From: Dictyostelium discoideum
Lineage: Eukaryota
Reading direction: 5' to 3'
Assembly (NCBI GenBank): GCA_000004695.1
Contig: CM000150.2
Coordinates: 1,184,001-1,248,000 of the forward strand
Length of the DNA: 64,000 nt
Below, piece after piece: positions 22,734-30,002 of this stretch. The notes below the pieces were generated by a model. That model was not told the origin of the DNA. It saw only the letters and a program-made list of their open reading frames with translations, and made no database searches. Made by a program: the position numbers and the translations under genes. Every line of letters starts with the position of its first letter. Within the stretch, counting starts at the first letter, position 1.

Positions 22734-23157
22734 TTTTTATACCTCGTCTGGACAATTATTTTCAAAATTTTGTAGATCTAATATTGAATATACTTTTATA
22801 AAAAATAAATAAAAAATAAAAAAAAAGAAATTAAATAAAAAATTAAAAAATTATTAATATTTGGGGGTTGTTATAATTTTTATTTTTGTTATTATTATTT
22901 TTATTTTGGGGTTTTTTTTTTTTGGTATTGCTCAAAAACACCAAAAAACAATTTAAAAATTTACAGATCATTTTTAATTTATCAATTTTATTTTTATTTT
23001 ATTTATATTATTTTATTTATAAAATAAAAAAAAATGAAAATTTGATTTTTGATAGTGGTAAAATTTATTAAATTTTCATTTTTTTTATTTTTACTAAAAA
23101 AAAAAAGAAAAAAAAAAAAAAAATTGAAAAAAAAATTTTTAGGACGCATGTTGATCA

Positions 23158-25051
23158 ATGGGTAAATATTAATTTCTAGTAATAGATTTTAATATATTAA
23201 TATTAAGTCAATAAACTAACAAACTCACTGAATACTTTTAAAAAGTTGAAAATAAATATATAGATAAAATTAAAACTTTAACATATAATAAAGAGTCACC
23301 AAAAACACTTTTAGAATTAATTACTGTTTTAAGGATTTATGATAAGTATAGAGATGATGAATCAATTAGAATTATAACTGCAGATTATTTCTGTCATTAC
23401 CACATTGATAAATATCTTCATTATGTAGATAAAAAAGGTCATACTGATTTCATTTTAAATTGTTTCTTTGATGATTCAAAAATTGTTTTTAAAAAATTAT
23501 GTGGTGGGTATTCCCCTCTTAATTCAAGTTATTGTAGATTTAAAATTTATAAGGGAATTGTTAATGATCAAAGGGTATGTCTTTATATTATATTTTTTGA
23601 TAAGGTTTATTAATATTAATACTACTTTATATTAATCAACCTTATCAAAAAATTAAAAATATATTTAGTTAAAAGAATCTTTTGAAAATAATTCGAGTGA
23701 ATTAAAAGAAAGGTTAGATCTTTTAAAAAAAAAATTTGTTTATGGTTGGTCAATCAAATCTCGAGCCGAATATGATTTCACTCGTTTACATAGTATCATT
23801 TATGATGGAATATCTGATGAAATTTTAAAATATCCAATTTCAGGAAAATATAATGATGGTTCATTTAATAAAAAGTATTATAATAATAGTAATAATAATA
23901 ATAATAATAATAATAATAATAATAATAATAATAATAATAATAATAATAATAATAATAATAATAATAATAATAATAATAATAATAATAATAATAATAATAA
24001 TAAAAATAATAATAATATTAATAATAATAATAATTATAAAAAATTCATTCTACCAGATATAATAATTGAAAAGATAATTAGAGATTCGTTATGGTATATT
24101 GATGATAGAATGGATAAAGTAATTATAAATGATAATTTATTATCATATGGATTAGTATGTAAACAATTCTTTAGAGTATTATCAAAAATATTAAATAATG
24201 AATATTTTGAATGGAAGAAATCAATTATACAATTTAATAACGATAGTGAATTCAGTTTAATTAAACAACCACCATTATATTTCGATTATCAATCAATCAG
24301 ATTAATACCATATTCAAGTAGTATTGAATATGTGAAATTATTATTCTCAAGAGTTCAATCGTTTTATATTAAAACTGATGAATATGATGCTATAAACTAT
24401 TATATGAAAAGAGAAAAAAAAAAAATTCCTGATAATGATGATAAAGAAAACGTTGTTTATTTAGAAGCAATTACATATCGAGATAATATTAAATCACCTA
24501 GATATTTAGTTTATCCACCACCAATGCCTTCATTAGAAAGTATCACTATTGATAAATATTATGGACTCGAATCAAATTATGCACATTTAATTAAACATAT
24601 TTTAATAAAATATTTCAAAGATTTTAAAACTTCAAAACTCCACATCAACGATAGATTTGGTATTAAAAGATTTTCAATCAATATCCAAGAATATCATAAA
24701 TATTTAAATGACAAATCAAATATTAAATTCATTAAGCAAGTATTAGAATATCATTCGAATTCATTAGAAATAGTTGAAATTGATTGTTCAAATACTCAAT
24801 ATATATATCCAAACCAACTAGAATATTTAAAATCATTAATCGATAATCAATCAAATAATAATATAAATTGGTCCCTATCAACTAAAAACATCACCAACAA
24901 CAACAATCTCCAAAATATACAGTATCTTGGTTTTAGTGAAAATGAGAATGAAAATGAAAATGAAAATGAAAATAAAAATGAAAATGAAAATGAAATTGAA
25001 AGTGACAATGAAAGTAATGGTGAAAGTGATAGCTATTCTTTCAACCTTTAA
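23158..25051 (+). CDS. Tandem-family gene copy A (predicted 571 aa): mini exon 23158-23161 (ATG+G), exon 23246-23574, exon 23669-25051; degenerate F-box-like motif (DNLLSYGLVCKQFFRVL), poly-N tract, C-terminal (ENENEN)n acidic tail
   Basis: The ORF is interrupted by an in-frame TAA just upstream of exon 2, so it needs a 5' splice. The ATG+1nt exon, GTAAAT donor and AAAAAG acceptor are conserved in copies A, B and C. The second intron GTATGT..TTTAG is conserved. Exon 3 carries an (AAT)40 poly-N tract and a (GAAAAT)n tail. Confidence 0.6.
23881..24000 (+). repeat. (AAT)40 coding poly-N in family copy A (much shorter, ~12 units, in copy B at 26467-26500)
   Basis: Copy-number difference between paralogues is seen directly. 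Confidence 0.9.
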
Positions 25052-25185
25052 AAATTTAGAGAAATTAAAATAAAATTTAATTTATTTTTTTATCTTTATC
25101 TTTTTCTTTTTCTTTATCTTTTTTTTGGAACTACTTTGCAGAAGATACATCATTATTATTATTATTATTATTATTATTAAAAAAA
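25052..25185. repeat. Co-duplicated 3' flank: stop-proximal UTR of family copy A plus a fragment homologous to the last codons / 3' end of the minus-strand CH-domain gene (compare 29987-30125)
   Basis: ggaactactttgcagaagatacatcattattattatt at 25127-25165 matches gaaactacttttgcagaagatacaacattaccattattatt at ~30050-30090. The minus-strand translation ...DVSSAK echoes ...NVVSSAKVVSKKDREKDKDKKKKIN* of the intact gene. Confidence 0.6.
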
Positions 25186-25486
25186 ATATCCAAACGAATC
25201 AAATGAACCAGATGAAGCAAACAGGCCAGATGAACCAGAAGAATTAGATGAGGCAGGGATATAGATAGTCTATTTATAAATATATCATCAATTAATTCAA
25301 TCAATAAATTTAATGTAGTTTTAAAATTAAAATCATTCACGGACTCTCGAAATTAAGTTTGTATAAAAAATAGTAATGATTTCAATTTCGAGATTTTTAT
25401 TATTGGATTTCATTTTATTTTACACTCTAATGCTGAAACTATACGATAAATCAACAAACAAACACACTAATTACTTTTAAAAAGTT

Positions 25487-27808: not shown

Positions 27809-28396
27809 AAATTAAGAGAAATTAAAATAAAATTTTTTTTTTTTTATTTTTATAATATTGTTTGTTATTCCTTTAATTTAATAAATTATTATTATTTCAT
27901 TATTGTTTTTTTTTTTTTTTTTTTTTTTTTTTAAAATTTGCAATATCCTTTTTTGAGTCAACAAAAATTAAAAAAAAAAAATAGGCTCTATCAAGACCAA
28001 TTGAATTTTCTTTTTTTTTTTTTAAAAAATTTCAAATTTTAAATTTGGAAAAAATTATATTAAATTAACATTTTTGGAAATAAAATAAATAAAAAAAATA
28101 AAAAAAAGATGAAAAAATTTAAAATAACAAACCTATATTAAAAAAAAATAAATTAGGACCATTTAAAAAAAAAAAGATGATAAAATTTAAAAAAAAAAAA
28201 ATAAAAGATTTATAAATCTGTAGATTTAATGGAAATATGATTTATTTTAGTTTTTTTTTTTTCCTGGGTCAATCTTAAATTCCAAAGAAGTTTTTATATA
28301 GAAAATGTTGGAAAAAAAAAAAGAAAAAAAAAAAAAAAAAAAAAAAGAAAAAAAAATTTGGAAAAAAAAAAATTATTTTTATAGAATTCCCTAAAA

Positions 28397-29986
28397 ATGT
28401 GTAAATATTAATTTCTAACAATAGATTTTAATTTTTTAATAAGCTAACAAACACACAAATTATTTTTTAAAAGTTGAAAATAAATATATAGATAAAATCA
28501 ATACTTTAGCATTTAAAGAATCTCCCAAAACACTTTTAGAACTAATTACTATTTTAAGGATTTATGATAAGTATAGAGATGATGAATCAATTAGAATTTT
28601 TACTGCAGAATATTTCACGCGTTACCACAGTGATAAATATCTTCATTATGTGGATAAAAAAGGTCACACTGATTTCATTTTAAATTGTTTCTTTGATGAT
28701 TCAAAAGAAGTTTTTACAGAAATGAGTGGATATAAACCTTAATTCAAGTTATTGTAGATTTAAAATTTATAAGGGAATTGTTAAAGATCAAAGGGTATGT
28801 CTTTACTTATTTATTATTAATATTAATACTACTTTATATTAATATTAATCAAACTTTTCAAAAAATTAAAAACCAATTTAGTTAAAAGAATATTTTGAAA
28901 ATAATTCGAGTGAATTAAAAAGATTCATTATGTTATATTGATGATAGAATGGATAAAGTAATTATAAATGATAATTTATTATCATATGGATTAGTATGTA
29001 AACAATTCTTTAAAGTATTATCAAAAATATTAAATAATGAATATTTTGAATGGAAGAAATCAATTATAATAATAATAATAATAATAATAATAATAATAAT
29101 AATAATAATAATAATAATAATAATAATAATAATAATAATGAAATCAATTATACAATTTAATAACGATAGTGAATTCAGTTTAATTAAACAACCACCATTA
29201 TATTTCGATTATCAATCAATCAGATTAATACCATATTCAAGTAGTATTGAATATGTGAAATTATTATTCTCAAGAGTTGAATCATTTTATATTAGAACTG
29301 ATGAATATGATTCTGGAAGCTATGACACGAAAAGAGAATATAAAATAATTCCTAATGAAGTACCTGGTTATACTAGTGATAATTATTATGAAGAACACAT
29401 GTATCTAGTAAGTATTAGATCACCTGGATATTTAGTTTATCCACCACCAATGCCTTCATTAGAAAGTATCCTATTGATAAATATTATGGACTCGAATCAA
29501 ATTAAGCCCATTTAATTAAACATATTTTTAATAAAATATTTCAAAGATTTTAAAACTTCAAAACTCAACATCAACGATAGATTTGGTATTAAAAGATTTC
29601 AATCAATATTCAAGAGTATCATAAATATTTAAATGATAAATCAAATATTAAATTCATTAAGCAAGTATTAGAATATCATTCAAATTCATTAGAAAAAGTT
29701 GAAATTGATTTTTCAAATACGAAATGTACATATCCAAATATGAAATATATATGTCCAAACCAATTAGAATCTTTAAAATCATTAATCAATAAGCAATCAA
29801 ATAATAAAATAAATTGGTCCTTGTCAATTAAAAATCAAAAACGACCAAAATATACAAAATATACAATATCTTGGTTTTAGTGAAAGTGAAAGTGAAAGTG
29901 AAAGTGAAAGTGAAAGTGAAAATGAAAGTGATAATGAAAGTGATAGTGAAAGTGATAGCTATTCCTTCAGCCTTTAAAAATTTAGA
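28397..29986 (+). pseudogene. Tandem-family copy C, decayed
   Basis: The ATG+T mini exon is conserved (28397-28400). There is a 2-bp deletion in exon 2 (ggatataaaccttaattcaag gives an in-frame TAA). About 250 bp is deleted at the start of exon 3. An (ATA)24 expansion inserts poly-Ile (29069-29139). A 1-bp deletion near 29470 shifts the frame. The tail is (GAAAGT)n rather than (GAAAAT)n. Confidence 0.55.
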
Positions 29987-30002
29987 GAAATTAAAATAAA
30001 AT

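Follow-up and report, generated by a model that had tools for sequence, protein, structure and literature searches.

How did a cluster of closely related units come to lie between the profilin gene and the CH-domain gene of Dictyostelium discoideum, and how old is it? The locus belongs to a stretch of 64,000 nucleotides (the window; contig CM000150.2 of assembly GCA_000004695.1, forward-strand positions 1,184,001 to 1,248,000), here referred to as AX4. It is a head-to-tail array of three full copies of one gene (A, B and C) plus a fragment (F). Most probably the array is specific to the discoideum clade, is built from a gene family found only in dictyostelids, and evolves by birth and death. 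A preliminary description of the same DNA had recognised two intact copies, one fragment and one decaying pseudogene, and this census is borne out by self-BLAST, translations, a list of lesions and comparison with other genomes.

Both a repeat finder and a self-BLAST of 22-31.5 kb (E ~0) place four related plus-strand units within 7 kb of the window. The homology blocks found by self-BLAST are:

23096-25179, plus strand: block of copy A
25446-25671, plus strand: block of fragment F
25679-27853, plus strand: block of copy B
28312-30105, plus strand: block of copy C

No additional family member was found in the window by tblastn. Over ungapped aligned columns the full units are 89.5% (A-B), 88.5% (A-C) and 91.5% (B-C) identical, so the figure of more than 90% first given for the units does not hold for all full-length pairs, although all lie far above 70%. 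By BLAST, F is closest to B (93.4% identity), followed by A (90.7%) and C (87.5%).

The three full copies have a common plan, as had been proposed for the leader, the ATG mini-exon and both introns: after the A-rich leader comes a mini-exon of 4 nt (ATGG or ATGT, with GTAAAT directly behind it), then intron 1, exon 2, intron 2 (GTATGT...TTTAG) and finally exon 3, which is long. The parts of the array are:

23096-23157, plus strand: A-rich 5' leader of A, at the start of its homology block (TRF poly-A run at 23096-23135)
23158-25051, plus strand: copy A, intact, 571 aa (exons 23158-23161, 23246-23574 and 23669-25051, from splice landmarks and translation)
25446-25659, plus strand: fragment F, the last 39 nt of intron 1 and the first 175 nt of exon 2 (BLAST)
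25660-25765, plus strand: A-rich leader of B (TRF A-rich array at 25661-25741), 85% identical to the C leader at 28312-28396
25766-27808, plus strand: copy B, intact, 626 aa (exons 25766-25769, 25853-26175 and 26255-27808, from translation)
28311-28396, plus strand: A-rich leader of C (repeat scan, self-BLAST and flank comparison)
28397-29977, plus strand: copy C, a pseudogene (translation with stops; lesions relative to B and the orthologues)

Two boundaries differ from those originally proposed. Copy A had been started at the ATG at 23148, but from there the spliced frame runs into a TGA; the start that corresponds to those of B and C is the ATG at 23158. F had been started at 25380 and described as exon 2 only, whereas it begins at 25446, includes the end of intron 1 and holds only part of exon 2.

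To place the array in a comparative frame, we used syntenic loci of other genomes, obtained by exact-protein look-ups: two from assemblies labelled D. discoideum (L001 and L002), one from an independent AX4-like assembly (L007), one from D. dimigraforme (L008) and one from D. citrinum (L009). L003, L004, L006, L007 and L009 were examined via pattern search and gene tables. Ten long-read Dictyostelium genomes have been described, amongst which the isolates CR116C and OT3A are treated as diverged D. discoideum (PMC12745789). The assemblies compared here match that genome set, and we infer the pairing of assemblies with strain names.

L001 and L002 each hold three copies at the array site (R1-R3 and W1-W3), which answers, for two isolates, the earlier suggestion that copy number be compared between D. 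discoideum isolates. By their gene models R2, R3, W1, W2 and W3 are intact, and R1 has a single frameshift, in a homopolymer, for which a sequencing error may be responsible. L001 (at 6655-7149) and the matching part of L002 also hold, between copies 1 and 2, a small minus-strand gene (121 aa as called) that AX4 does not have. In D. dimigraforme and D. citrinum, the gene order at the same site is pyd1, profilin, CH gene, Aph-1 and kinase. Profilin and the CH gene lie 573 bp apart in the former and ~150 bp apart in the latter (profilin end at 14015 and CH gene start at 14168 of L009). The two features that bound this comparison in the window are:

22137-22741, minus strand: profilin gene, the conserved left neighbour, aligning to 13573-14179 of L008 (PF00235 Profilin gene there in L008, L009 and L007)
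22742-29977, plus strand, ~7.2 kb: discoideum-clade-specific stretch holding the whole array, bounded by the collinearity break with D. dimigraforme

The break runs from 22741 to 29976 in the window against 14179 to 14752 in L008, and its right edge falls exactly at the stop codon of C. No trace of the family was detected in L008 by tblastn (E > 0.5). A degenerate probe for the stretch coding for YPPPMP gave three matches each in L001, L002 and L007 and one or two in the paralogous loci L003-L006, with none in L008 or L009. The array therefore has no counterpart at the syntenic site of D. citrinum or D. dimigraforme, and is specific to the discoideum clade. One D. dimigraforme protein, P0004, with a locus tag near that of pyd1, was considered as a candidate for the syntenic site and rejected, as it does not lie within 10 kb of pyd1.

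The age of the array was bracketed using synonymous divergence (Ks). Between AX4 and the two isolates, Ks is 0.067-0.085 for flanking genes and 0.064-0.096 for A against R1 and W1; i.e. the orthologous copies diverge at the rate of their neighbours. Amongst the paralogues within the array it is 0.10-0.17, and between AX4 and D. dimigraforme it is 0.29-0.39. The triplication thus predates the split of AX4 from the isolates and postdates the split from D. dimigraforme. As paralogue Ks exceeds that of the isolate split, the array is not very recent, and the word "recent" in the preliminary description holds only in a relative sense: three copies were already present before AX4 separated from the two diverged isolates.

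Neighbour-joining trees were built with bootstrap. The group (A,R1,W1) has 100% support, (R2,W2) also has 100% and is sister to the copy-1 clade, and (C,R3,W3) has 94% on all ungapped columns, and 58-63% in the two trees of segments in which it appears. Copies thus group with their positional orthologues in the other genomes, with the exception of B, which sits on the copy-3 side of a 100% split.

The rival that survives best holds that the array, or its founder gene, is old at this site and was cleanly lost in D. citrinum and D. dimigraforme. It draws on the distance to the closest paralogues outside the array, which are 41-53% identical in protein and so far older than the D. dimigraforme split (Ks 0.29-0.39), and on the fact that no donor copy was identified. 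An unsampled donor may nonetheless exist, as the homologue search that we used is known to miss relatives: with the CH C-terminus as query it missed the orthologues in L001 and L002, and with B it missed R1, R2, W1, W2 and the AX4-like A and B models, so that its failure to find something is weak evidence. Clean loss would also have to leave neither a family remnant in L008 (tblastn, E > 0.5) nor a family motif in L008 and L009, with intergenic gaps of just ~150 and 573 bp and with the 3' flank of the CH gene intact in D. dimigraforme up to the position of the AX4 C stop. Moreover, even the most diverged paralogues of the array, with a Ks of 0.17, fall clearly short of the Ks to D. dimigraforme. 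We therefore consider an old array lost in both relatives to be unlikely.

The preferred reading, a clade-specific array turning over by birth and death, has its own difficulties, and three points weigh against it. With the nearest paralogues found elsewhere ~50% identical in protein and no donor locus among them, the polarity can be given only as probable gain here, against loss in the relatives. B fails to pair with R2 and W2, the copies at the corresponding position, and this blurs a simple picture of three orthologous positions. Finally, the mechanism is read from the positions of breakpoints alone, and the data fit unequal crossing-over and replication template switching alike. Of the original proposal of birth and death by unequal crossing-over, the birth and death stand, whilst the crossing-over is not separable from template switching.

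B and F also carry the record of exchange between copies. F is a mosaic and not a plain truncated copy. Its exon-2 nucleotides 1-45 match B at 40/45 positions and R2/W2 at 43/45, and over nucleotides 46-175 it agrees with B at 129/130, in a part that includes a stretch found in B alone. Its last letters, CAT TAG, abut the A-rich leader of B (CTTCATTA|GGAAAAAAAAAAG). F is present in L007 and was not found in L001 or L002. Because of the 129/130 identity with B over its 3' part, the birth of F ranks as the latest event in the array. F may have arisen when a short piece at the 5' end of the middle copy was duplicated or copied by template switching, conversion taking place at the same time or later. 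B is similarly mixed, with 29 diagnostic sites shared only with copy 3, 15 only with copy 2 and 10 only with copy 1, the copy-2-like ones being concentrated in the tail. Local gene conversion in the array is evident.

Could such exchange account for most of the similarity, so that the likeness of the copies says little about the age of the duplications? In favour of concerted evolution of this kind are the near-identity of F and B, the mosaic sites of B, a stretch of 68 bp near 26685-26753 over which A, B and C are 100% identical, and a few informative sites that unite copies within genomes (four shared by A, B and C only, four by R1, R2, W1 and W2 only). However, patterns by orthology dominate, with 24 sites for (A,R1,W1) and 14 for (C,R3,W3); amongst the remainder, 11 unite B with the copy-3 group and 8 unite B with R2/W2. 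Whole units cluster by position, with the 100% and 94% support given above, and orthologue Ks equals that of the flanking genes. Within-genome paralogues are closer to one another than orthologues are in short patches only, not over whole units. Concerted evolution as the main source of the similarity is hence very unlikely.

The right-hand ends of the units bear on how the array was built. The features concerned are:

25053-25179, plus strand: copied 3' flank and last 34 codons of the CH-domain gene, beside A (89.8% identical to 29979-30105)
25180-25445, 266 bp: spacer between the CH-tail copy and F, for which no match was found
27809-28310: spacer between B and C, of which the first ~45 bp is the shared 3' flank and the part from 28121 is orthologous to the R2-R3 spacer
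29978-30105, minus strand: the CH gene's own final 34 codons with 25 bp of 3' flank, from which the tail beside A was copied

The CH gene itself has its open reading frame at 30003-32072 on the minus strand, and its orthologue carries PF00307 CH. A tail of ~60 bp from this gene had been ascribed to every unit; it is clear beside A only, where it is 127 bp long. R1 and W1 keep 78 bp of it. B keeps at most ~45 bp of shared 3' flank, R2 and W2 likewise retain only a short piece of the immediate flank, and F has none of it. Since D. dimigraforme has this flank although it lacks the array, the tail comes from the CH gene, and the duplication that gave rise to the copy-1 lineage had its right breakpoint inside the CH coding region. 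The earlier idea that breakpoints lie within the 3' end of the neighbour thus applies to the right breakpoint of that lineage, not to every unit. The left ends of all units fall in A-rich tracts, and the right end of the A unit falls in (ATT)9 followed by A8.

From these positions, the following course of events can be proposed. One family member would have come to lie tail-to-tail with the CH-domain gene, the stop codons 25 bp apart. Head-to-tail copying would then have used a unit made up of the A-rich leader, the gene and at least the final 34 CH-gene codons. As unit ends fall in poly-A and ATT/AAT tracts, misaligned exchange or replication template switching at these low-complexity tracts is the likely mechanism. 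In the present array, the stop of C (29975-29977) and that of the CH gene (30003-30005) are 25 bp apart, so the two transcripts would overlap or share termination signals.

Two features of the spacers were also recorded. Window positions 28121-28378 align with 9707-9959 of L001 at 75%. The spacer at 25180-25445 has no relative in the window, L001 or L002 (E<=1e-3), and by six-frame translation a short acidic reading frame ends inside it (...EPDEANRPDEPEELDEAGI*).

The A-rich tract before each unit might instead point to retroposition or to transport by a mobile element, as might the unexplained 266-bp spacer and the small extra gene between copies in the other isolates. Yet introns are kept in all copies (both in C, the end of intron 1 in F), the head-to-tail units carry genomic flank in the form of the CH tail, and it is on the upstream side of the genes, not at their 3' ends, that the A-rich tracts are found; scans of the window, L001 and L002 found no tRNA genes, and the copies contain no transposon-type Pfam domain. 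Spread by retroposition or by a mobile element is highly improbable.

Birth in this array is matched by death. C has at least seven coding lesions: a 2-bp "CT" deletion at 28737/8 that produces CCT TAA; a 257-bp deletion at 28923 (corresponding to B 26297-26553); an 84-bp insertion at 29056-29139, mostly (AAT)26; 1-bp indels at 29470, 29525 and 29596; and a 5-bp deletion at 29835. The preliminary description had listed a 2-bp deletion creating a TAA, a ~250-bp deletion, a triplet expansion and a late frameshift, and all of these are real. L007 contains consistently spaced exact 30-34-mers across three of the features (the 2-bp deletion, the junction of the large deletion and that between F and the leader), so these three are not misreads. 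The orthologues of C are intact in both other isolates (R3, P0001, 531 aa; W3, P0011, 533 aa), and C therefore died in the AX4/AX2 lineage. Its death is confined to that lineage. The A4-to-A3 slip of R1 (L001 ~6205) and the T4-to-T3 slip of C (29596) lie 5 bp apart in the same GGTATTAAAAGATTTTC stretch. That the array, the lesions of C or the F stub are assembly or sequencing artefacts is a negligible prospect even in a region rich in microsatellites and homopolymers and with a possible sequencing error in R1, given the exact L007 matches, the three family-motif copies in L007 and the three-copy arrays of two further isolates.

Selection differs between the copies. Substitutions on each AX4 copy were polarised against the agreed state of its relatives and expressed as the ratio of nonsynonymous to synonymous change (pN/pS). 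Copy A has a pN/pS of 0.33-0.40 (p 0.010-0.017) and is under purifying selection. Copy C has a pN/pS of 0.98-1.03, i.e. neutral, and now drifts. Copy B lies at 0.63-0.86 (not significant), which is indistinguishable from neutrality. B is an intact, weakly constrained copy with a mosaic sequence. The two copies that had been listed together as intact do both have open frames, but they are not equal in health.

A and B differ also in their low-complexity tracts. In A, (AAT)53 at 23880-24039 encodes a poly-Asn tract of ~50 asparagines; B holds 16 repeats there, and orthologues vary widely at the same place. In B it is the low-complexity tail that is expanded, with (CAA)25 at 27364-27438 and a GAAAAT array at 27460-27786. 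This tail (27364-27786) has a second "KYLSFS..." module and is far longer than in A, C or the orthologues. The public annotation of L007 (14449-16951, 17057-19099 and 20425-21264) fuses A with F in a 615-aa model that ends at the TAG of F, and places a gene of 200 aa within pseudogene C; the two models are probably annotation errors.

The array had also been called lineage-specific, which applies to its presence at this site and not to the family. A search with the family profile gave 46 clusters amongst 1.84 billion representatives, and all ten of the named clusters that were looked up are dictyostelid, including Heterostelium, D. purpureum, Tieghemostelium and Acytostelium. With members in other dictyostelid genera, the family is dictyostelid-wide and not specific to one species. 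B matches one family member, P0007, with E 1.4e-105 over 98% coverage. In AX4 the paralogues DDB_G0268388 and DDB_G0268390 belong to the same family as the array (E 1e-105 and 1e-43) and share with it the motifs LVSKQFF, PPLYFDY, IPYSS and YPPPMP; they differ from it in lying at another locus, and their identity to B is 48% and 42%. The consecutive accession numbers make it probable that the two are adjacent as well. A further locus, beside a tRNA synthetase and a Nop gene (L004, L003 and L006, from AX4-like D. discoideum, D. firmibasis and D. citrinum), holds one or two adjacent family copies and is conserved between species, whereas the array studied here occurs in the discoideum clade only. 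The paralogous loci L003-L006 (D. firmibasis, D. citrinum and AX4-like D. discoideum) in general hold one or two neighbouring copies, and the D. firmibasis models P0002 and P0003 look like fusions of adjacent copies. Exact look-ups of two window open reading frames gave no match, and a literature search for the AX4 gene identifiers found nothing.

What the protein does can be addressed through its predicted structure. The UniRef name of DDB_G0268390 is "F-box domain-containing protein", a label without Pfam confirmation for A, B and most family members. An AlphaFold model built on a 14-sequence alignment had a mean confidence (pLDDT) of 48.8; the model used here, built on 40 sequences, has a pLDDT of 77 and a predicted TM-score (pTM) of 0.78. 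It predicts that residues 1-160 form a helical, HEAT/ARM-like domain at the N-terminus and that a disordered poly-Asn linker separates this domain from three helices (203-252), which take in FILPDIIIEKII...LLSYGLVCKQFF; alternating strands and helices follow to ~488 and, after this alpha/beta repeat domain, an acidic low-complexity tail. F-box/LRR proteins such as SKP2 are substrate receptors. A motif of the array protein, L-P-D-I-I-x-K-I-x(n)-L-L-x-x-x-L-V-C-K-Q-F, aligns non-significantly with the F-box helices of SKP2, and hhalign sets the SKP2 F-box helix on LLSYGLVCKQFF. The model predicts three helices ahead of strand-helix repeats, an arrangement that may resemble that of SKP2; unlike SKP2, the array protein has ~15 residues inserted within the motif and the additional HEAT/ARM-like domain.

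An F-box-like motif in the family is only weakly supported, and the suggestion that the array protein serves as a substrate adaptor of an SCF-type ubiquitin ligase is tentative and on the doubtful side. Several results speak against it. Pfam finds no domain in A or B (E<=1 for F-box), and across the family its F-box matches just 2/40 members (best E 0.015), with no consistent domain. The hhalign comparison with SKP2 has a probability of 0.4%. The family-profile search found no sequence relative in the PDB, and Foldseek gave no PDB match below E 0.49. A Pfam match to Vir1p was rejected as an artefact, since it falls on the poly-Asn tract.

A bolder combination can be put forward, which we regard as rather improbable: the F/B pair might have been left by one replication template switch that took place where the middle copy begins, at its 5' end, and the family might consist of fast-turning-over, F-box-like ubiquitin-ligase adaptors whose gain and loss reflect conflict. 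F-box expansions in plants and nematodes provide a parallel for conflict-driven turnover. If this were true, gain and loss of family members between close amoeba lineages could reflect conflict with pathogens, with cheaters or over mating.

The gene order of the window is COG4, HEAT-repeat giant, spore-coat gene, pyd1, profilin, array, CH-domain gene, Aph-1 and kinase. The long pyd1 exon (19136-21880) encodes a protein 100% identical to AX4 dihydropyrimidine dehydrogenase, which marks the window as D. discoideum of the AX4 type. The genes further to the left are:

3972-6644: COG4 gene
8748-14906: HEAT-repeat protein of >2000 aa
16010-17386: spore-coat protein (Dicty_spore_N)

The locus is a compact and datable case of a new gene cluster arising and decaying within one species complex. 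It shows insertion beside a convergent gene, units that clip the coding end of that neighbour, gene death in one lineage and a very recent partial duplication. It is also a guide for annotation, as automatic models fuse A with F and annotate a gene in part of C. Events of this kind, as the locus shows, can be polarised with the new long-read genomes of Dictyostelium.

Within the same genomes, a comparison can be made with the tgr clusters, which are likewise fast-turnover, clade-restricted tandem clusters, tgrB/C-type genes being restricted to the discoideum clade (PMC12745789). The proteins are unrelated, the array family has no known role in recognition, and the array differs further in showing no sign of hypermutation, orthologue and flanking-gene Ks being equal. 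More generally, the Nei-Rooney model describes birth-and-death evolution of tandemly arrayed gene families. The array shares with it head-to-tail paralogues, clustering by position, one lineage-specific pseudogene, a fragment and a copy state that varies between isolates. It departs from the typical case in having three copies only, some local conversion, and a unit that reaches into the coding end of a convergent neighbour. It is no new kind of biology, but ordinary, textbook birth and death with local gene conversion.

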